Origin: Bacteroidales bacterium
Lineage (GTDB): Bacteria > Bacteroidota > Bacteroidia > Bacteroidales > ML635J-15
Length of the DNA stretch: 64,000 nt
Direction: 5' to 3'
NCBI GenBank assembly: GCA_035343375.1
Contig: DAOQYW010000007.1
Location: 6,124-70,123, forward strand
Shown here: piece after piece, positions 1,665-56,899 of the stretch
Layout: the number at the start of each line of letters is the position of its first letter
How positions within the stretch are numbered: the stretch's first letter is position 1
Notes under the pieces: generated by a model
What the model was told of the DNA's origin: nothing
Seen by the model: only the letters and a program-made list of their open reading frames with translations
Database searches by the model: none
Made by a program: the position numbers and the translations under genes

Positions 1665-4193
1665 CTATTCTTTGTCTTTACTTATTTTAATAGTGATTCC
1701 TGTTTTTTCACTAAACCCGACAGTAATTGTATCACCTTGTGATATCTCTGCTTTAATAATAGTTTCGGCCATAGCATCTTCAACATATTTTTGAAGTGCT
1801 CTTTTTAATGGTCTGGCACCAAATTTTGGGTCAAAACCTCTTTCAGCAATATAACTTTTAGCAGCCGGAGTAAGTTTAATATAATAACCAAGTTCTTTAA
1901 CTCTATTATATAAACCTTTCAACTCTATATCAATTATTTTGAAAATGTCTTCTTTTGAAAGCGAATTAAATAGAACGACATCGTCAATACGATTTAAAAA
2001 TTCCGGAGCAAAAGCTTTCTTTAATGCTGCTTCAATAATACTTTTAGCATTTGCATCAATACTTGCTTTTCTTGCAGTGGTATCAAAACCGACGCCTTTA
2101 CCATATTCAGACAGTTGTCTTGTCCCAATGTTTGAGGTCATGATAACTATAGAATTTCTGAAATCAATTCTTCTACCAAGGCTATCAGTTAGTCTTCCTT
2201 CGTCTAAAACCTGAAGCAAAATATGAAATACGTCAGGATGAGCTTTTTCTATTTCGTCTAATAATACGACAGAATAGGGTTTACGTCTTACTTTTTCAGT
2301 GAGTTGGCCGCCTTCTTCATAGCCAACATATCCGGGAGGTGCTCCAACTAAACGAGATACGGAAAATTTCTCCATATATTCGCTCATATCTATTCTAATA
2401 AGAGCATCTTCTGTGTCGAACAGATATTTAGCCAAAACCTTTGCCAATTGCGTTTTCCCGACTCCTGTAGGACCAAGAAATACAAATGTCCCAATAGGTT
2501 TATTAGGGTCTTTTAATCCAGCGCGGTTACGTTGAATTGCCTGAACGACTTTTTTAATTGCATTTTCTTGGCCAATTACACTACCCGCAAGTTCTGCCTC
2601 CATTTGTAATAATCTGTTACCTTCGGTCTGAGCAATTCTTCTAACAGGTACACCTGTCATCATAGCAACAACTTCTGCTACATTTTCTTCATCAACAGTT
2701 TCGCGTCTTTCACTAATTTCTTTTATCCACTGATCTTTAGCAAGTTCAATTGCATTTTCAATTTCTCTCTCTTTGTCACGCATAGAAGCAGCTTTTTCGA
2801 ACTGCTGATCTTTTACAGCTTTAAGCTTCATATTTCGTGCATTCTGAAGATCTTCTTCAAGCTTAATAATTTTATTTGGCACAGAAGCAGTAGAAATATG
2901 AACTCTGGAGCCGGCTTCATCAAGAGCATCAATTGCCTTGTCGGGTAATGCCCTGTCGCTAACGTAACGCATGGTTAGTTTAACGCAGGCTTCTAAGGCG
3001 TGGTCTGTATATGTTACCTTATGATGGTCTTCGTATTTTTCCTTAATTTTATGAAGAATCATTAATGTCTCGTCAGGACTGGTTGCTTCAACCATTACTT
3101 TTTGAAAACGGCGTTCTAAAGCTCCGTCTTTTTCAATATTTTGTCTGTATTCGTCAAGAGTTGTTGCACCAATACATTGTATTTCGCCTCTTGCTAATGC
3201 TGGTTTTAACATGTTGGCAGCATCTAGTGAGCCTGTTGTACCCCCGGCACCGACAATAGTATGAATTTCGTCAATAAACAATATTACATCATTTGCTTTT
3301 ACTAATTCATCAATTATGGCTTTCATTCTTTCCTCAAATTGTCCACGATATTTTGTTCCTGCAACAATTGAAGCCATGTCAAGAGTAATTACTCTTTTAT
3401 CAAAAAGCAAATGAGATACTTTTTTTTGTATTATTCTTGCAGCAAGACCTTCGACAATAGCAGATTTTCCTACACCGGGCTCACCAATCAACACAGGATT
3501 GTTCTTTTTTCTTCTTGACAATATCTGAGAAATACGTTCAATTTCCGTATCTCTACCAACAATTGGGTCAAGTTTGCCTTCTTCAACAGCTTTTGTGAGG
3601 TCCACGCCAAAACTGTCAAGTACCGGAGTGTCCGATTTCGATTTACTCGTTGTCCTTCTTGATGCACCTGGATCTGCCGATGAACTTCCATAAGGTCCGG
3701 AACCGGAATCTTCGTTTTCATCTTCATCATCATCATCAGAAGACGCAGAACCTGTAAACTCACTCATTTCCATACTCATTTTTACCATATCATATTCAAT
3801 ACTAAATTCATCCAGTAATTGTGAAAAGCGGCTTGGAACTTTTAATATAGCAAGAAGTAAATGTCCAGTATTTATTTCGTCAGAGTTAAGAGATATGGCT
3901 TCCGAATACATAAATTTCTGAATTCTTTCTGTAGTCTTTGTAGGAACCACTTTATCCATATCATCCATAGTTAGCTCGTTGTTAATATTTTTTACGTGAG
4001 CTTCTATTTTTTCTTTTAGTTCGTGTATATTTATGTCCAATTCTTTTAGTATATCCACAGCTTCGCAAGACGATTCGCGTAAAATACCAAGAAACAGATG
4101 TTCAGGTCCTAAATAATCATTGCCAAGCCTAATGGCTTCCTCTTTACTGTATTGAATAACATCAAGCAATGACTGAGAAAATTTTCTTTTCAT
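1665..4193 (-). CDS. clpC: ATP-dependent Clp protease ATP-binding subunit ClpC
   Basis: Double Clp-N domain, two AAA+ modules (GEPGVGKS and GPTGVGKT Walker A; FIDEIH and LLDEIEKAH Walker B), short UVR-type middle coil, GARPLKR motif. Confidence 0.95.
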
Positions 4194-4299: not shown

Positions 4300-4553
4300 G
4301 TAAATAAGAGAAGCTTAGTTTTTGATTTTTTTAAGTTTTGTAATAATGATTTTCATTGGAAAATGCAGTTACTTAAATTAACTTAAACAATGATTAAGAT
4401 GCAAATCAGACAAATTTTTATAAACATAAATTGTTGAAAAGTAACCACAATCTTGAAAAATTTAACAAAAGAAAAGTACTATTTTAGTAAACTTTTTAAA
4501 AAATACACAAAAGGTTGAAATATAGTGAAATAGAAATTTAAAATCAAAGGATT

Positions 4554-7127
<2,574 letters not shown>

Positions 7128-49068: not shown

Positions 49069-50713
49069 TATGTACTACTTTTCCTATTCTGTTCCATCTG
49101 ATTCCGCCATATTCTTTATCTCGTGATAACCATATAAGCCATGCTTTTCCAACAACGTGGTCTTCGGGAACAAATCCCCAGAATCTTGAATCTGCTGAAT
49201 TATGTCTGTTATCACCCATCATCCAATAGTAGTTCATTTTAAATGTGTATTCAGTTGTTTCTTTACCATTAATGAATATTTTATTTCCTTTAACTTCAAG
49301 AGTATTATGTTCATAATATCCGATTATTCTACTATATAAAGGCAGAATTACAGTATCAAGTTTAATAGTAGCTCCTGCAGCTGGAACATACATGGGGCCA
49401 AACCAGTCAACATTCCATTTGTAATTATCGTTGTGGGGGAAAATTCTAAATCTTTCACTATAGTCAGCAATAGAATCTAACACATCTTTTTTAATACTTT
49501 TAATAAAAGTCATTTTTGAAAATTTGTCAAAATTTGCTTTTGTCAAAGGAATTATAAATGCACTGCCAGCATCTGTAAATCTTATATCAGATTTGTTTAT
49601 TTCGTATTCTTTTAATACTCTTTCAGGAATATCGCTTCCATCTGTTTGAACAACATAGTTAAATTGTTTTGTAGGAATATCTTTTTGAGCTTTACCATTT
49701 ACAAAAACTTCTCCATTTTTAACCTGTATTGTGTCACCTCCAACAGCAACACATCTTTTGATGTAGTTTTCTCTTTTATCAACAGGTCTGATTATAATTT
49801 CATAAACGTCCCAAATAATTTGTCTGGCCATTTTATCATAATCGGCCTTTGTTTTAATTCTTGGTCCGCTTTTGTAAAATTCTTTATCATATTCCTGCAT
49901 TTTTTGAACGGCAAGTTGTAATAACTCATTTGTATGTGCAGGGTTAGCATTTGGATTAAAAAGATGAAAAGCAAGTTCACGATAATATTCCGGAGACTTT
50001 GGATTTACGATTACGCTCGAATCTCCTTTGACACTGACTAAAACGGCATAATCATATTCCTGCATCAGATATGAGGCAATTCTGACTATATCGTAGTAGT
50101 CCTGAGCCTGATTTTGAACGCAGACAGTATCGCCAGTTGGATAATTGAAAACAACCATATCGTCACGTTTCACTTCTCCCCAGCCAACCATACGTTCGTA
50201 TTCGTTTTGTATCCATAAGAGGTACGAAGGAGTCGATTTCGTTAATGGTAGTGTGTGATGAACAAACGGAAAGGAGAGTGGAGTCATTGGAACTCTTGGA
50301 CCGTAAGCGACTTTACTGACAAATAAATAGTCGCCGACCAGTAAAGTCTTTTCCATCGAAGATGTCGGAATAGTAAATGCCTCGAAGAAGAAAATCCTGA
50401 TAAATGATGCAGCAATTACTGCAAATATTAATGCATCAACCCATTCAAGAGTTTTTCGGGCTATTTTAGTGTATTTTTTATCTTTTTTTGGCTTCCAGAA
50501 AGCCCATCTCACTTTTTTAGTGATATAAATGTCAACTATAATTATTTCACCTATAAGCCACCAATAGCTGCCCATCCAGACAACCCACAAAATATAACAG
50601 ATACTTACAACCGCAAACCAAATCCATTTGTTTTTAAGCTTTTGAACAATACTGCTGTTAGCGATTTTTGATTTTAATCCTAAATTTTTCGTTTTTGTTG
50701 TTTTTTGTGCCAT
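49058..50713 (-). CDS. lepB: Signal peptidase I
   Basis: [14 protein letters not shown] (Ser), ENYIKRCVA (Lys) and [17 protein letters not shown]. Confidence 0.93.
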
Positions 50714-50715
50714 AA

Positions 50716-51432
50716 TTATAGTTTTAATAAGTCACTCATCGAAAATACTCCGATTTTGCCAATAACAAATTCAGCCGCCATAATAGCTCCTTGTGCCAGT
50801 CCTCTTCTCGACTTTGCTGAATGGCTTATGCTGATTATATCAATGTCATTTTCCCATATAATTTTATGATCTCCATAAATTTCACCTTCTCTAAACGAGT
50901 TGATTTCTATTTTATTTTTTTCATTACACGGATTTAACATCCATTTAACATATTTTGGATTATTCTTAATAATTCCATTTGCTAAAGTTATTGCAGTACC
51001 GCTTGGTTTGTCTAGCTTATGAATATGATGAGTTTCTTCAATTTTTGCTTCATAATCATTAAATCCCGACAAAAGTTCAGCAAGCTTTTCGTTAATCTTC
51101 ATAAATACATTAACTCCAATGCTAAAATTTGAAGCATAAAATACTGCTGCCGAATTTTTGATGCATAATTTTTTAAACTCATCTTTATTTAAATCCCATC
51201 CTGTTGTACCACTAACGACTGAAATGCCGTTCTGTAAACAATTGATAACATTTTGTTTAGCTGAATTGGGGGAAGTAAATTCTATAGCAATGTCTGCAAT
51301 AGATTTTAGATTTTCGCTAATTTTATCGGTTGTGTTAATATCAATAACAGCAGTAATAGTATGCCCACGCTCTAAGGCAATTTGCTCAACAGCTTTGCCC
51401 ATTTTACCGTAACCAATTAGTGCAATTCTCAT
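50716..51432 (-). CDS. dapB: 4-hydroxy-tetrahydrodipicolinate reductase
   Basis: [41 protein letters not shown] and G-x-H. Confidence 0.95.
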
Positions 51433-51540
51433 AATATAATTTATGTTGTAAAAATACTATTATTTTTTGAAGCAATGTAATTTAAGAAATTAAAATATTG
51501 TTTAGCCTTTAATTATTCTTCCTCCCAACCATAACCACCA

Positions 51541-51567
51541 CTCCAACGCGAATGACTCGCGCTGGAG
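51541..51567 (+). repeat. REP-like palindrome 1 (degenerate centre)
   Basis: CTCCAACGCGAATGACTCGCGCTGGAG. Confidence 0.9.
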
Positions 51568-51591
51568 TTTGAGAGTTTGAGTTGGTGAAAT

Positions 51592-52263
51592 CTAAAATTT
51601 ATAACACAAACTAACTCGCCCTATTGCGCTAATGTGATTGAAATATCCAATAAAATCATTGCTGCCTTTTAGTACGACTTGCAGTGGAAGACCATAATCG
51701 TTAATTTCTCTAATGTACCATTGTTTTGGCGAGAAACCAAATCCGCCGGTAAGGTTTATGCAAAGTTTATCAGTGGGATATAGTTTATATCCTGTAAGTA
51801 ATCCTATAGATATTTTATGTTCTTTTAAACTAATAGTTAAGTTATTGTTTTCTGCATACTCAATTTGTGCAGGGGTAAATTCGTCAACATTTTTCACAAA
51901 ATTGTGTAAAAGCCAATACCTTGCATAAATGCCGTAATAAAACGCATCAACTTCTTTGGCATTAGTTTTATATTTCTTTAATTCTAAATTAGCAAAGCTA
52001 TTGTGCTTACGGTGGTAAATCGGGTCTTCTGTTATTATTCCATAACTTTTCTTTGAATAAAATGAACCCCCCAAGCTAAAACTTATTTTATTATTAAACT
52101 TATGCTCCACTGCAAGTCCGGGTAAATCTAGAATGCCTCCGTATATTGATACCTCAGTTTGAGTAAATGCTTTTACTAGGATTAGTTGAAAAACTGCTAG
52201 AATAATTATTTTCATCAACAGCCATTTAAAGTTTATAATATAATCGCTTTTATTTGAATGCAA
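51592..52263 (-). CDS. Outer-membrane beta-barrel protein (DUF3575-like); likely start ATG at 52215
   Basis: Signal peptide MKIIILAVF..FTQ; amphipathic strands (YYGIYARY, SIGLLTGYK, NLTGGFG); terminal SLCYKF; own TAAATTTG -7 box at 52261-52268 on the - strand. Confidence 0.7.
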   Translation of the reverse strand: MHSNKSDYIINFKWLLMKIIILAVFQLILVKAFTQTEVSIYGGILDLPGLAVEHKFNNKISFSLGGSFYSKKSYGIITEDPIYHRKHNSFANLELKKYKTNAKEVDAFYYGIYARYWLLHNFVKNVDEFTPAQIEYAENNNLTISLKEHKISIGLLTGYKLYPTDKLCINLTGGFGFSPKQWYIREINDYGLPLQVVLKGSNDFIGYFNHISAIGRVSLCYKF

Positions 52264-52318
52264 ATTTATTTAAGTTTTCTAAATCTCCAAAGTGTATTAT
52301 TCTCGCCAAACTCCAAGA

Positions 52319-52345
52319 CTCCAGCGCGAGTTACTCGCGTTGGAG
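52319..52345 (-). repeat. REP-like palindrome 2
   Basis: CTCCAGCGCGAGTTACTCGCGTTGGAG, the reverse complement of copy 7. Confidence 0.92.
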
Positions 52346-52366
52346 TGGTGTCTTTACATTCCAAAA

Positions 52367-52393
52367 CTACAGCGCGAGTTACTCGCGCTGGTG
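52367..52393 (-). repeat. REP-like palindrome 3
   Basis: CTACAGCGCGAGTTACTCGCGCTGGTG, with a perfect inner stem. Confidence 0.88.
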
Positions 52394-52399
52394 AATTGA

Positions 52400-52477
52400 A
52401 TCTTTACAATTTTTTCATTATTCAATGTTTATATCTAATATTCCACCAATTCCTGAATAATTCCTTGCAGATGAATA
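52400..52477 (-). pseudogene. Diverged fragment of a RAYT 3' end
   Basis: Encodes YSSARNYSGIGGILDINIE* versus FSSARNYSGMCGVLDIIIE* in the intact gene (52520-52595). Confidence 0.85.
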
Positions 52478-52483
52478 CCCAAA

Positions 52484-52510
52484 CTCCAGCGCGAGTTACT
52501 CGCGTTGGAG
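52484..52510 (-). repeat. REP-like palindrome 4
   Basis: CTCCAGCGCGAGTTACTCGCGTTGGAG, identical to copy 2. Confidence 0.92.
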
Positions 52511-52535
52511 TTACAGAATATCTTTACAATTTTTA

Positions 52536-53090
52536 TTATTCAATGATTATATCTAAAACTCCACACATTCCTGAATAATTTCTTGCAGATGAAAACTTAT
52601 ACTCTGTTGCATATGATACAAATCCCGCATCAACAGGATTTAAATGAATATAATTAAGTTTTTGTTTAAAAATCTTTTCTGTACTAATTTCAATAGGATG
52701 AAAACCATCTTGCCAAAACTTGTATTTCCAATTTCTTCTAATACGTAATCCTTCATTCCTAAAAACCGTCAGCATTTTATTTTTATCCCCTGATAGTTCC
52801 ATTTCCTTAATGATTTTCACAGATGTAAATTTTTTCATATCACGCATTATATTACTAATCCTTATGTCATTCCCTCTTGCAATAATGTGAAAATGAGTCG
52901 GCATTAAACAATAAGCGTACAATTCCATACCTTTATGATTCTGACAAAAGCGTATTGAGTCTATAAGTATATTAATATATTTTTCTTCAATAAATACCTT
53001 TTCCCAGTTTACAACTGTACTTGTAATAAAATAAGCTTTGGTATCGTCATGGGCTTTGTAATATTCTGACATGAAGTAATGTTTAGACAA
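52536..53090 (-). CDS. REP-associated tyrosine transposase (RAYT/TnpA-REP, Y1 HUH family); likely start ATG at 53072
   Basis: YFITSTVVNW..VF, YAYCLMPTHFH (HUH), MRDMKKFTS, WQDGFHP, QKLNYIHLNPV (catalytic Tyr) and FSSARNY; no frameshift or stop. Confidence 0.92.
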   Translation of the reverse strand: MSKHYFMSEYYKAHDDTKAYFITSTVVNWEKVFIEEKYINILIDSIRFCQNHKGMELYAYCLMPTHFHIIARGNDIRISNIMRDMKKFTSVKIIKEMELSGDKNKMLTVFRNEGLRIRRNWKYKFWQDGFHPIEISTEKIFKQKLNYIHLNPVDAGFVSYATEYKFSSARNYSGMCGVLDIIIE

Positions 53091-53095
53091 AGATA
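53088..53095 (-). promoter_or_regulatory. -7 box of the transposase promoter (duplicated at 53238-53245)
   Basis: TATCTTTG on the - strand, 15 nt before the ATG at 53072; an identical box precedes the duplicated ATG at 53222. Confidence 0.55.
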
Positions 53096-53133
53096 ATTAA
53101 TAATAAGATAGGTTAATGAATAGAATTACCAAA

Positions 53134-53160
53134 CTCCAACGCGAGTAACTCGCGCTGGAT
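53134..53160 (+). repeat. REP-like palindrome 5
   Basis: CTCCAACGCGAGTAACTCGCGCTGGAT. Confidence 0.92.
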
Positions 53161-53166
53161 TGGTTG

Positions 53167-53283
53167 GTACTTGTAATAAAATAAGCTTTGGTATCGTCAT
53201 GGGCTTTGTAATATTCTGACATGAAGCAATGTTTAAACAAAGATAATTAAAAATAGGATAGGTTAATGAATAGAATAACCAAA
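53167..53283 (-). repeat. Tandem copy (150-bp offset) of the transposase promoter and first 18 codons
   Basis: 53167-53283 versus 53017-53133: 5 substitutions in 117 bp; the 56 coding bp are identical. Confidence 0.92.
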
Positions 53284-53318
53284 CTCCTCCAGCGCGAGTA
53301 ACTCGCGCTGGAGGAGTT
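53282..53318 (+). repeat. REP-like palindrome 6 (extended perfect 18-bp stem)
   Basis: AACTCCTCCAGCGCGAGT-A-ACTCGCGCTGGAGGAGTT. Confidence 0.92.
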
Positions 53319-53359
53319 GAATTAAAATGTTTTTTTAGACTTTAATTATTCTTCCCAAA

Positions 53360-53386
53360 CTCCAACGCGAGTAACTCGCGCTGGAG
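53360..53386 (+). repeat. REP-like palindrome 7
   Basis: CTCCAACGCGAGTAACTCGCGCTGGAG. Confidence 0.92.
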
Positions 53387-53403
53387 TGGTTGAGCAGTGG
53401 TAT

Positions 53404-54630
53404 TTATTCTACGTGACTCCATCTAATGGCATATTCATTCCCCACAATATCAGCGTATGAAATAGTTACAATTTCAACATTATCAATATTTATTTCTTCC
53501 GGAACAATTACATTGGAATAATCAGAAATGATATCGTTTTCATTTTCACCAATTACAATACAATCTTCACCATTATCCTTTTTTTGTATTTCAACTCTAA
53601 GCCATGTAACAAAAGCAGGAGCCTCAACATTTTGATTATCTGAACTTTCATAAGTAATCATAATATTTGTCACCTTACCAGTGTTATCAGTTATTAATCT
53701 GGGACGAGCCAAAACAAGGAATCTTTCAACATCAATTTTATAGTAATGGAGTTTATAAAAGGTAGTTCCATCAAGGCTGAAATTATAAACACCTGTTTCA
53801 AAAGGTTCTCCATCTGAACGATCAAAGGTTGATTGAAAACCAAATTTACAATTTGGGTAATAAGAGTAATTGTCTCCAACATTGATATTTGTATGGGGAT
53901 TTCCTTCCGGACCGTTAAAAGCTACATTTATATGTTCAGGTATAATTCCATAACCACCTCGTATATTAAAGAAATATTCAATAAACGTCTCTTGCAAATC
54001 CGGATTAATTTCATTGTACAGCTGAGCTTCTGTTTCATTTACTCCACAAGCCCCGGCATGCACTCTGAACATTGTGTTTATCATCATGTGAGAGTCGGTA
54101 AAATAATCAGGTTTTCCATCCGAATCAGTATCAATATTCTCTGCCAAGGATTCATAAAATGCTCCTAATTCCTGCAGTAATTCAATAAATTCTTCCGAAA
54201 TTAGAATTTCGTTACCAACCGGGTCATTCGAAGGATAAACTCTATCGCCATCAAGGGTTAATTCTGATAAATCAATTACAGTGTTTTCTCCGTCTGACAA
54301 ATTCACCAATGGTAACATATTCATGCCTCCAACAGAAAGGTGTCCGATATATTCAAGTTTTTTGGTAACAAAAATTAAAGCTGTAGCAGAACCCGGAGGA
54401 GCATATAATGCAAAAGATTCATCATCAATTTCCACAACCTCAAACATTTGGCCGTAAATGACCATAATTTTATCAGCATCGGCTAAAGTCAGTCCGCTTT
54501 TAGTTGATTTTGTTTTATTATTTGTCAGTGTTCCTTTAATTAACACTCCATGATCGAGGTTATTGTTATCTTTCTTGCATCCAATAAAGATAATTATTCC
54601 TAAACAGATTGTTATGATTAAAAATTTCAT
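53404..54630 (-). CDS. Hypothetical lipoprotein
   Basis: Lipobox IIFIGC; contains DTDSDGKPD (DxDxDG Ca-binding-like loop). Confidence 0.72.
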   Translation of the reverse strand: MKFLIITICLGIIIFIGCKKDNNNLDHGVLIKGTLTNNKTKSTKSGLTLADADKIMVIYGQMFEVVEIDDESFALYAPPGSATALIFVTKKLEYIGHLSVGGMNMLPLVNLSDGENTVIDLSELTLDGDRVYPSNDPVGNEILISEEFIELLQELGAFYESLAENIDTDSDGKPDYFTDSHMMINTMFRVHAGACGVNETEAQLYNEINPDLQETFIEYFFNIRGGYGIIPEHINVAFNGPEGNPHTNINVGDNYSYYPNCKFGFQSTFDRSDGEPFETGVYNFSLDGTTFYKLHYYKIDVERFLVLARPRLITDNTGKVTNIMITYESSDNQNVEAPAFVTWLRVEIQKKDNGEDCIVIGENENDIISDYSNVIVPEEINIDNVEIVTISYADIVGNEYAIRWSHVE

Positions 54631-54661
54631 AAAAATTTTATTGTAAATATACTCAATTTAT

Positions 54662-56899
54662 TTATTCAAACCATTTACGCATTATTTTTAAAATATCATC
54701 CTCAGTATATGGTTTTGAAATATAATCATTACATCCAGTATTTAGAGCTTTTTGTTTTTCTTCATTTAAGGCATAAGCGGTTTGAGCAATAATAATTATA
54801 TCCTTGTTTAGATTTCGTATTTTTTTAGTAAGTTCATATCCGTCAATACCTGGCAATTTCATATCCATAAAAATTACGTCAGCATCAGAATGCTTTTTAT
54901 ATAGTTCCAGTGCGTCATCTCCGTTTGTGGTAGTAAGTATTTGATTACTAATAGGCTCAAGAAACTTTTTTAACAAAGATATAGCATCATCACTATCGTC
55001 AACAACCATTATCTTAAGTCCTTTTTTAATTTTATTTGTTGTATCTGAGTTGTTTTCTTTAATGTTTTCTATAGTTTTTGAATCAACTTTTTTATAACTT
55101 ATCGTGAAGTGAAAAACGGTACCAATATCAGGGGTACTTTCCGCCCAAATTTTGCCTCCGAGCATAGTTACATAAGCTGAAGATATTGATAATCCTAATC
55201 CTGCACCTTCATATCCACGACTATGAGAATTACTTGCTTGTCTGAATCTTTCAAATATTAACTCAAGCTGGTCTTGTGGAATTCCCTTGCCTGTGTCTTT
55301 TACATAAAATTCAACAAACTTTCCTTTCTTTTGACAGCCAAATTCAATACTTCCTTGTTTTGTAAACTTTATTGCATTTTTTATTAAATTGGTAAGTATC
55401 GCATACAATTTTTCTGAATCCGTTTTTATATGAGATTCTTCCGGGGTTAAAGAGTTATTACAAATCAACTTAATGCCGTTTTGTGTTGCTTCAGGTAAAA
55501 AGAATGCATATTGATTTTCCATTACAGAATTAATATCTGTATCTGAAAAATAAACTTGCATCTGACCTGATTCAATTTTGGAAATATCAATAATATCGTT
55601 GATAATATTCAACATTCTCATTCCGCTCTTTTCTATCAAACTAATGTATTCCTTTTGTTTTTCGCCTGTTAGGTTTGGTCTTTTTAATAAACTCGCAAAG
55701 CCTATTATTCCATTCATTGGCGTACGAATTTCGTGACTCATATTGGACAAAAATGCCGATTTAAGTTGATCGCTTTCTTCGGCTTTCTCTTTAGCTTTAA
55801 TAAGTTCGTTTTCGGTATGTTTTCTACTAGTTATATCTCTCGTTACACCATGAATCCCAATCAGTGTACCTGCTTCATCTAAATATGGTGTTACTATAAG
55901 TTCTCCCCATTTGGTAGAACCATCTTTACAAATATATTCCATTTCAAGAATACTCGTGTATTTATTGTTTTTCTCTTTAGCGTTCAAAAAATTTTTAACC
56001 TCATTTTCCAATATTTTCTTGCCTGCTATAGCCGATTCCAAAGTAAATCTTTCATCAATTGTTTGATTCATGTATTCATCAACTGTAAAGCCTGTAAATG
56101 ATTCGATGGAAGGGGAGACAAATAAGCTTTTGCCTTTAAAATCCATAAGCCAAACGACATCTGTCATTTTTTCTGCTAGTTGTTTGTATTTGCTTTCGCT
56201 GCTACGCAAAGCCAATTCAGTATTCTTTCTTGCTTGCAATTCTTTTCTTAAAGATTTGTTTTTTGTCTTTATTATTAGAAGAAAAACAAGAAGAATTAAA
56301 AACAACAAAACAATTAATGAAGATTGAAATAGCTCATACAACATATTTTTTTTCCATAAAGCTGCATTAAAATCCATCCCGAAAACGGCAATAACTTCTT
56401 TATTTTCTTTATCCAAAACGGGCACCATTACGCTTACCCATGTTCCCCATCTGTCAGTAATAGGCTCTGAGATGATAGTACGGTTTTCGTAATATGGTAT
56501 ATAAACGCTGGAATCGGCTTCGACAAACTCCTGACCAGCAGGCGAATAATCAGGAGAATCTATGGGTTCTGAATCTGCAATAAAGAATATTTTACCTTCT
56601 CGCAGAGTATAAAGATATGTAAATCTCGATTCAGGATTTACTGTCATAAGTGCCCCTAATAGCTTTTTTAGCTCAAAATATTCTTTTTTATTCAGATCTG
56701 ATTTTGTTGCATTAAGGCTGTCGATCAATTCATGAGGTAACATTATCTCAATAGATTCGGCAATTCGTTGTATTCTAACAAGATTTTTTGTTTCTATTTT
56801 GTTCCAAGAATAGTTGAGATAAAAAAAACCTCCAATTATTGCAGCTATAAAAATTAGTATTTCCGGTAAGATATTTAAAAAGAATTTCTTTTTATTCAT
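54662..56899 (-). CDS. Hybrid sensor histidine kinase/response regulator with PAS domain
   Basis: TM-periplasmic Cache-like-TM; PAS (DVVWLMD..FVSPS..GVTRDIT); FLSNMSHEIRTPMNG; NAIKFT, DTGKG and GLGL boxes; REC domain (VVDD, FMDMKLP, SKP). Confidence 0.92.
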   Translation of the reverse strand: MNKKKFFLNILPEILIFIAAIIGGFFYLNYSWNKIETKNLVRIQRIAESIEIMLPHELIDSLNATKSDLNKKEYFELKKLLGALMTVNPESRFTYLYTLREGKIFFIADSEPIDSPDYSPAGQEFVEADSSVYIPYYENRTIISEPITDRWGTWVSVMVPVLDKENKEVIAVFGMDFNAALWKKNMLYELFQSSLIVLLFLILLVFLLIIKTKNKSLRKELQARKNTELALRSSESKYKQLAEKMTDVVWLMDFKGKSLFVSPSIESFTGFTVDEYMNQTIDERFTLESAIAGKKILENEVKNFLNAKEKNNKYTSILEMEYICKDGSTKWGELIVTPYLDEAGTLIGIHGVTRDITSRKHTENELIKAKEKAEESDQLKSAFLSNMSHEIRTPMNGIIGFASLLKRPNLTGEKQKEYISLIEKSGMRMLNIINDIIDISKIESGQMQVYFSDTDINSVMENQYAFFLPEATQNGIKLICNNSLTPEESHIKTDSEKLYAILTNLIKNAIKFTKQGSIEFGCQKKGKFVEFYVKDTGKGIPQDQLELIFERFRQASNSHSRGYEGAGLGLSISSAYVTMLGGKIWAESTPDIGTVFHFTISYKKVDSKTIENIKENNSDTTNKIKKGLKIMVVDDSDDAISLLKKFLEPISNQILTTTNGDDALELYKKHSDADVIFMDMKLPGIDGYELTKKIRNLNKDIIIIAQTAYALNEEKQKALNTGCNDYISKPYTEDDILKIMRKWFE

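Follow-up and report, generated by a model that had tools for sequence, protein, structure and literature searches.

Organization of the dapB locus

In a Bacteroidales bacterium (GenBank assembly GCA_035343375.1, contig DAOQYW010000007.1), the spacer between dapB and a gene for a 408-aa lipoprotein holds a cluster of seven repetitive extragenic palindromic (REP) hairpins, designated P1 to P7, together with a gene for a REP-associated tyrosine transposase (RAYT) and a gene for a putative outer-membrane β-barrel protein (Table 1). RAYTs are textbook examples of domesticated, immobile transposases. An earlier interpretation of this 64-kb stretch of DNA (hereafter the window), made from its sequence and referred to below as the original prediction, had described about 1.8 kb that is enclosed by P1 and P7 and contains a barrel gene and a RAYT, and had proposed that this unit may be a REP-bounded composite element able to capture or mobilise a cargo gene; both gene assignments are borne out by a fold model and by the NCBIfam model NF047646, respectively. 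In what follows, G000 denotes the genome to which the window belongs (a 3.7-Mb assembly), further G numbers denote congeners, L and C numbers denote loci and contigs, and four-digit P numbers denote proteins.

Hairpins were counted in the window as matches to the core CGCGAGTWACTCGCG with at most 2 mismatches, with 100 shuffles as the control. All seven matches fall at 51547-53380, as compared to 0 matches in the 100 shuffles, and the hairpins themselves span 51540-53387; the rest of the window is free of REPs. Across the G000 genome, 25 REPs are found on 11 contigs, with 14-16 of them located in two clusters; among 39 congeners, REPs of the G000 type were found only in G000 (21 copies), G001 (5 copies), and G009 (1 copy). 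The G000 REP consensus (aATACTCCAACGCGAGTAACTCGCGCTGGAGTGCAg) has no 5' tetranucleotide tag (GTAG or CGTC) adjoining the stem, a tag that has been defined mainly for Proteobacteria (PMC3733652, PMC3333891). In 21 of the 25 copies, a stem mismatch, A.C (or G.T), varies together with the loop base; this mismatch is gone in P3 and P6, which would hence be inert by the rule described for Escherichia coli (see below). Both of these hairpins are joined to remnants of RAYT gene ends, and P6 is a perfect 37-nt palindrome.

REP orientation (A or B) was scored on three diagnostic core positions (i.e., the left mismatch base, A/G; the loop centre, A/T; and the right mismatch base, C/T), which co-vary in nearly all 25 G000 REPs; P1, P5, P6, and P7 show core orientation A, and P2, P3, and P4 show orientation B. 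The view that P1 and P7 share the same orientation thus holds for the core (scores for A of 2/0 and 3/0, respectively), but not for the 5-10 nt directly adjoining the two stems, which fit an inverted orientation better (I4; 87% complementary over 38 nt). P1 and P2 do form, as had been described, an inverted pair around the barrel gene alone (I1), with 44-nt arms that are 89% complementary and lie 727 nt apart; a doubled CAAACTC motif is restricted, in the G000 genome, to these two hairpins. This pair resembles a REPIN (i.e., a REP doublet forming a hairpin) in that its inverted REPs are able to form one long hairpin, but its 727-nt spacer with a 207-aa gene differs from the short non-coding spacer and many copies that characterize REPINs. 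Doublets in the inverted A...B order, which is also the order of P1/P2, are present on G000 contig C18 (65-nt gap) and at loci L038 and L049.

Table 1. Features of the region around dapB and the lipoprotein gene, with coordinates in the window (D, direct repeats; I, inverted repeats).
Feature	Position	Strand	Evidence or remark
dapB (dihydrodipicolinate reductase)	50716-51432	-	Pfam DapB_N, DapB_C; resident gene, with the insertion upstream of it
Native dapB-proximal part of the spacer	51433-51485		Aligns with the G001 spacer
Flank a, native spacer, first direct-repeat copy	51486-51522	+	D5; homologous to the G001 spacer
Linker of 17 nt, CCAAC/CCACC-rich, from flank a to P1 (P7 counterpart: 3 nt)	51523-51539	+	Alignment
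REP P1, core orientation A, degenerate loop, doubled tail TTGAGAGTTTGAG	51540-51581	+
Barrel gene, 207 aa, signal peptide	51592-52215	-	AlphaFold/Foldseek
REP P2, orientation B, inverted partner of P1	52307-52346	+	I1
REP P3, B-type loop, stem mismatch lost	52366-52393	+
RAYT 3'-end remnant, ~20 codons + stop, 85% identity with the end of the live gene	52400-52478	-	D3, D12
REP P4, orientation B, directly downstream of RAYT	52483-52511	+
RAYT, 178 aa	52536-53072	-	Pfam Y1_Tnp 8.5e-9; NF047646
REP P5, orientation A, directly upstream of RAYT	53133-53159	+
Remnant of RAYT upstream region + first 56 coding nt, part of the 150-nt unit lacking in GCA_029558535.1	53167-53281	-	D2: 121 nt, 96%
REP P6, orientation A, perfect 18+1+18 palindrome	53282-53318	+	I22
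Flank b, second native-spacer copy	53319-53355	+	D5
REP P7, orientation A; native sequence TTGAGCAGTGG directly after	53356-53392	+
Lipoprotein gene, 408 aa, resident neighbour	53404-54630	-	Adjoins dapB in the sister species

The dapB spacer in related genomes

The closest sequenced species, G001, shares 81%, 92%, and 80% identity with G000 for dapB, lepB, and the lipoprotein, respectively. In G001 (contig C21, locus L019), an 86-nt spacer separates the 408-aa lipoprotein gene from dapB and contains no hairpin, barrel gene, or RAYT. The dapB-lepB synteny is kept in all congeners examined, and in G004, G018, and G047 a histidine kinase gene directly adjoins dapB. Because the G001 spacer is uninterrupted, the 1.9-kb block found between dapB and the lipoprotein gene in G000 is a lineage-specific insertion. 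An in-silico join of flank a to the sequence after P7 aligned end-to-end with the G001 spacer, with the insertion point located between ...ATTATTCTTCC and TGAGCAGTGG.

The AT-rich flank that had been noted before both P1 and P7 is indeed repeated; the two copies (36-37 nt) are 81% identical in an ungapped alignment (D5) and match in 33 of 38 columns of a gapped alignment. In a blastn-short census of the whole 3.7-Mb assembly, the flank was found in these two places only, and its best sub-alignment scored 36 bits, as compared to 24 bits for the 95th percentile of random 37-mers of the window, which were used as the control. Since the flank aligns with the intact G001 spacer and is present there once, it is host (target) spacer DNA that was duplicated, and not the terminus of an element; a repeat of this origin leaves the idea of a REP-bounded composite element without its main premise. 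Moreover, the empty site that the original prediction anticipated, consisting of one flank plus one palindrome, was seen in no genome, and the actual empty site in G001 is without a palindrome.

Within the species, 11-12 contigs from other samples encode an identical dapB or barrel protein. The insertion is present in all of these, always at the same site, and an empty allele was found in none of these assembled contigs; the insertion thus seems to be fixed in the species. The proposed search of relatives for an empty site hence yielded a clean one in G001 and none among the same-species contigs. The whole locus is spanned in two independent assemblies, by the ENA contig k141_1182380 and the JGI contig Ga0209200_1002428 (L025 and L026; 99.98-100% identity over window positions 50700-54700).

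Two further contigs from the species show variation at the locus. The only difference in L024 (GCA_029558535.1) is one 150-nt unit fewer; positions 5380-5620 of this contig (reverse complement), aligned to window 53017-53316, contain a single 150-nt unit of RAYT 5' end + REP, of the outer (P6) type, which may represent either a real polymorphism (a deletion between repeats or the state before the duplication) or a collapse of the two units during assembly. L029 (ENA ERZ27257434 k141_762534) matches the window from dapB into the RAYT gene, up to a junction at window position 52993, past which it switches in frame to an unrelated P-loop-like open reading frame (ARRIGKSS...) with no counterpart in the G000 assembly; the contig may be a chimera, or the RAYT gene may be disrupted in the strain from which it derives.

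Evidence for a change of locus of the RAYT gene

The RAYT scored 107 bits (E 7.7e-31) on NF047646 (REP-associated tyrosine transposase; cutoff 80 bits), as compared to 16.9 on the NCBIfam IS200 model (cutoff 55). Its translation contains the HUH motif (HFH; ...LMPTHFHIIARG...) and the tyrosine motif (YIHLNP; ...KLNYIHLNPV...), and its database homologues bear the name RayT. The gene is flanked by cognate REPs in inverted orientation, P4 (B) and P5 (A), and the same REP(G..T)-RAYT-REP(A..C) arrangement, read on the coding strand, is found at L017, L040, and L043. The G000 genome contains one full copy of this RAYT gene plus a 40% identical paralogue; the latter (G000:C6:57127-57669) falls into a different clade of the RAYT tree, which included 20 sequences.

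In the sister species, the orthologous gene is found elsewhere. L038, a 4-kb contig that is 97.3% identical to G001:C282 and therefore belongs to the G001 species, shows the gene order selU-REPs-RAYT-REPs-DsrE, and its REPs share the G000 core (CCAACGCGAGTAACTCGCGCTGG). The L038 RAYT is the sister of the G000 RAYT in the tree (support 96/92), and the synonymous divergence (dS) between the two, 1.33, is close to that of dapB (1.10) and of the 408-aa lipoprotein gene (1.42), which indicates that the two RAYT genes are orthologues as old as the species split. In G000, the selU to DsrE interval (contig C65) contains about 9 REPs, and no RAYT fragment was found between the two genes. With an orthologous RAYT at selU-DsrE in the sister species and REPs without a RAYT at the same place in G000, the most economical reading is that the RAYT gene left selU-DsrE and is now located in the dapB spacer. 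In G004, G018, and G047, DsrE is found in another context and without REPs.

More distant orthologues (54-60% identical; G004, G018, P0009, and P0010) are all located between two PALP genes with a REP on each side, and P0008 represents a fourth context, beside ABC2 transporter genes. RAYT loci in the genus thus number four: PALP, selU-DsrE (G001 species), the dapB spacer (G000 and L055, described below), and ABC2 (P0008). The related genomes thus do not keep the RAYT gene in one conserved extragenic space, although such conservation would be expected for a vertically inherited, immobile RAYT. G000 itself retains a relic hairpin (CCCACCCGAGAAACTCGCGCGGG; G000:C101:1584-1606) located 34 nt past a 491-aa PALP gene, at the same position as the RAYT-flanking REP of G004, and no RAYT adjoins this relic. 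A RAYT copy hidden in the gap between G000 contigs C16 and C101 was considered and rejected, as both contigs run on into other genes.

Recurrent duplication beside REPs

Comparison of the REP clusters points to a recurrent pattern, in which DNA from the 5' side of an A-oriented REP is found a second time, again with a REP, directly 3' of a REP. Five cases were identified, including (i) the RAYT promoter and 5' end (D2; 150-nt period, 96% identity); (ii) the RAYT 3' end, on the opposite strand (D3 plus a 12-nt stub); (iii) on contig C65 (L044, 3988-4455), a 234-nt unit that consists of the 3' end (~178 nt) of the selU-like gene + REP, is repeated perfectly in tandem, and stops exactly at the 3' boundary of the REP (directly after …CTGGAGTGCAG); (iv) a tandem of RAYT 3' end (~37 codons) + REP in L038 (947-1180); and (v) the flank + REP unit at P7. 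The boundary of the L038 duplication differs from that of the 3' remnant in G000, which indicates an independent event. All five junctions are located 5-6 nt outside the stem. At G000:C100:3443-4310, REP doublets are found inside the unit of a 433-nt tandem duplication (98% identical) and not at its junction.

The barrel gene

An AlphaFold model of the 207-aa protein (predicted local distance difference test, 80.7) gave CarO, OmpW, Thermus 3dzm, and the OmpA transmembrane domain as best Foldseek matches (E down to 3e-5), and the protein is thus predicted to be a small outer-membrane β-barrel with a CarO/OmpW-like fold; neither Pfam nor NCBIfam yielded a match for this gene, for the 408-aa lipoprotein gene, or for the barrel-like gene on C65 described below. 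The gene is single-copy in G000 and is under purifying selection (ratio of non-synonymous to synonymous divergence of 0.115 against the 77% homologue), and GC content (32.2% for the barrel gene, 29.1% for the RAYT gene, and 32.3% for the window) provides no signal of foreign DNA.

Homologues of the barrel gene with 77% (L032), 48% (five contigs), and 44% (G004) identity are all located divergently beside a gene for a 299-aa protein, usually followed by an ankyrin-repeat gene, and have no REPs nearby; the search, proposed with the original prediction, for a barrel gene flanked elsewhere by the same palindrome thus yielded none. In G000, the 299-aa and ankyrin genes are present on contig C60, where the barrel gene is not beside them. 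Because the homologues keep their 299-aa neighbour and the G000 barrel gene is located away from its own, the latter appears to have been displaced, and either moved or was re-acquired into the REP cluster between the inverted P1 and P2. Homology between the window and L032 stops about 15 nt past the barrel stop codon, where P1 starts. No barrel homologue was found in G001, nor is there a barrel gene at the RAYT locus of the sister species (L038), and barrel and RAYT genes are unlinked in G004 and G018. With regard to the proposed capture or mobilisation, comparative evidence thus supports a change of locus for the RAYT gene itself, and for the barrel gene such an event is plausible only.

A different barrel-like gene is found in the other REP cluster. 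On contig C65 (L044), direct copies (~89-90%) of a 410-540-nt non-coding element with a REP at both ends (4422-4963 and 6339-6749; partial copy at 2834-3006) bracket a gene for a 247-aa barrel-like protein (4979-5722, minus strand) and DsrE. This gene shows no detectable sequence similarity to the barrel gene in the window, and we do not claim a shared cargo family.

A RAYT gene in the same spacer of a second lineage

L055, a single 2.1-kb metagenome contig, contains in order the lipoprotein gene (product 76% identical to that of G000), a REP, 68 nt of dapB-type spacer, a REP, the RAYT gene, and a third REP, after which the contig ends; the dapB side is located beyond the contig end. Between L055 and G000, REP-RAYT-REP is 92-93% identical at the nucleotide level, with a RAYT dS of 0.31, as compared to 77% and a dS of 1.0 for the adjacent lipoprotein gene, and the step in similarity falls at a REP. 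This may indicate either that the cassette was exchanged between lineages after they had split or that the contig is chimeric at the REP; an exact look-up of the L055 lipoprotein yielded no match. The 68-nt spacer copy, which is another instance of adjacent DNA and a REP placed after a REP, consists of a flank-b-like segment plus 34 nt that reach further into the native spacer. Under either reading of L055, flank b is what remains of a native-spacer copy that was once longer.

The L055 RAYT gene (1514-2050) requires a frame change near codons 124-139, at a T-run, and may thus be a pseudogene or contain a sequencing error. The 3'-end remnant in the window (52400-52478) ends in ...SGIGGILDINIE, followed by the stop codon (motif SGIGG), and is nearer to L055 1989-2050 (SGIGGVLDIIIE before the stop) than to the live G000 RAYT (SGMCGVLDIIIE before the stop), which hints at an older RAYT allele that was partly overwritten.

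Origin of the REP cluster

We consider it probable that the segment at 51486-53392 is a relocated REPtron, which is the home of the single cognate RAYT of the genome and in which REP boundaries drive local duplication and gene trapping; the 1.8 kb represent an accreted cluster rather than one transposon. As a mechanism, we favour RAYT-mediated breakage and joining at REP boundaries, by analogy with the E. coli enzyme. E. coli TnpA-REP binds single-stranded REPs only if these have a stem mismatch, and removal of the mismatch abolishes both binding and cleavage; this enzyme also cuts single-stranded DNA beside a REP and more than 400 nt away and recombines such sites, an activity that was proposed to generate the variability and amplification of bacterial interspersed mosaic elements (PMC3333891). 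The RAYT of G000 may similarly bind the mismatch-bearing hairpin in single-stranded DNA and may cut just 3' of the hairpin as well as at more distant sites. Rejoining of unequal partners (i.e., a REP-proximal cut and a distal cut on sister strands) would yield REP-X-REP structures, such that upstream DNA + REP is copied to the spot directly after a REP and foreign segments are admitted there. Flank b + P7 would be one such copy, which was probably retained because dapB thereby keeps a complete spacer with its promoter. This arrangement could have been reached by an early tandem duplication of spacer + REP, with the RAYT and barrel modules later inserted at the junction, or by insertion of the modules first, with a copy of spacer + REP then placed after P6.

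A number of points weigh against this account. A cleavage motif common to the five duplication junctions (such as the one cut between C and T in E. coli) was looked for and not found; four of the five cases are strictly tandem, but flank b + P7 is removed by 1.8 kb from flank a + P1; a 14-nt indel beside the stem separates P1 from P7; and L055, as one short metagenome contig, could be a chimera at the REP. Some of these observations fit the main rival account, a history in which the same events occurred without RAYT catalysis, with hairpins that stall replication and thereby cause template switching, slippage, and illegitimate recombination, and with the RAYT gene as a passenger. Microhomology of at most 1-3 nt at junctions that coincide with hairpin boundaries, without a common cleavage motif, is consistent with this history, as are the tandem duplications of 118, 150, and 234 nt, which look like slippage products, and the C100 tandem with its internal REPs. 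We nevertheless regard it as rather unlikely, since slippage does not explain why one flank copy is dispersed, how the RAYT gene came to change locus, or why high identity in L055 is confined to a tract with sharp limits at REPs, and since the copied DNA is found on the same side of the REP (by core orientation) in five of five cases, which strand-symmetric stalling would not predict. RAYT and REPs may also constitute a still active gene-moving system in this clade, with a cassette that transposes itself within genomes (from selU-DsrE to dapB) and between related lineages (G000 and L055) and with inverted REP pairs that carry whole host genes; we view this possibility as unlikely, but, if it were true, P1-barrel-P2 would represent a "REPIN with a passenger", and an HUH enzyme would be relocating genes.

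A REP-bounded composite transposon that extends from flank + P1 to flank + P7 and moves the barrel and RAYT genes together, with the repeats as its ends or as a target duplication, would account for the insertion relative to the sister species, for the common core orientation of P1 and P7, and for the change of the RAYT locus. This reading is nevertheless very unlikely, as the flank is host spacer DNA, the unit is single-copy and occupies the same site in all contigs of the same-species sample, high similarity between L055 and G000 is limited to REP-RAYT-REP, and the RAYT locus of the sister species lacks the barrel gene. Y1 transposases are not known to produce target duplications, as established for IS200/IS605. 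We did not find the combination of relatives that carry the barrel gene in place without palindromes and a lack of any empty site, and the idea that the whole unit is mobile is neither refuted nor confirmed. Similarly improbable is a block that the common ancestor of the G000/G001 clade already carried and that G001 lost by precise deletion, which would make the empty site secondary. L055 also has a RAYT in the dapB spacer and a lipoprotein about as divergent from that of G000 as the G001 protein is, as an ancestral block would allow; however, recombination between direct repeats should leave a flank + REP, the G001 site is without any hairpin, the G001 species carries its RAYT elsewhere, with REPs at that place in both species, and the RAYT genes of G000 and L055 have diverged far less at synonymous sites than the adjacent gene. 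Finally, an assembly artefact (i.e., a metagenome bin mis-joined at repeats) is hardly credible: many contigs from other samples do stop inside the REP cluster, and L029 shows an odd junction within the RAYT gene, but two independent assemblies cross the whole locus with near-perfect identity and a third differs by a single 150-nt unit.

Comparison with known systems

The closest known system is the yafM REPtron of E. coli K-12, which also consists of a single-copy Y1 HUH transposase gene flanked on both sides by inverted cognate hairpins with a conserved stem mismatch, and with more REP copies dispersed in intergenic DNA (PMC3333891). By contrast, G000 has only about 25 REPs, more than half of them clustered, and these lack the GTAG/CGTC tag; in addition, remnants of RAYT ends and of host spacer are found between REPs, a complete unrelated gene is located inside the cluster, and sister species do not share the locus. 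REPIN-RAYT systems of Pseudomonas likewise show inverted REP doublets, a single-copy RAYT with clade-specific REPs, and REPs that stay at the locus after loss of the RAYT; Pseudomonas RAYTs stay in the same extragenic space, however, with no evidence of self-transposition (PMC3116915, PMC5581495, bioRxiv 10.1101/2021.07.10.451892), whereas orthologues are found here at four loci in one genus, and the P1/P2 spacer is gene-containing and far longer than that of Pseudomonas REPINs (about 100 bp or less). Occasional RAYTs at non-syntenic loci have received passing mention in fluorescent pseudomonads and stenotrophomonads and were read as duplication or as horizontal acquisition with integration (PMC3686654). 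Both RAYT/REP clusters and non-syntenic RAYTs, as found here, are thus already known; what sets the present case apart is that, in Bacteroidales, the donor scar (the REPs without a RAYT at selU-DsrE), the empty recipient (the dapB site of the sister species), and the filled site are all identifiable. Finally, the "peel and paste" elements of the IS200/IS605 family (e.g., IS608) share with the present system an HUH/Y1 enzyme, hairpin ends, single-stranded substrates, and insertion without a short target duplication; IS608 is multi-copy with end hairpins in the same orientation, whereas the present RAYT is a single-copy gene between inverted hairpins and scores far below the cutoff of the IS200 model.

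The locus provides a matched set consisting of an empty recipient site, a donor locus with REPs and no RAYT gene, a much younger cassette found at the same spacer in another lineage, and a resident gene displaced into the REP cluster. If confirmed, this set would open both RAYT self-mobility and gene capture by REPs to direct tests in the Bacteroidota, a phylum whose REP systems have barely been described. The locus also illustrates REP clusters that duplicate a putative promoter-bearing spacer beside an essential gene.

Other sequence signals at the locus

Rfam searches yielded 0 matches in the window locus and in the C65 cluster, and a σ70 promoter scan of the locus remained at the shuffle level, with a model that fits Bacteroidota poorly. 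The terminator-like matches in the locus are the hairpins P2, P3, and P6 themselves.

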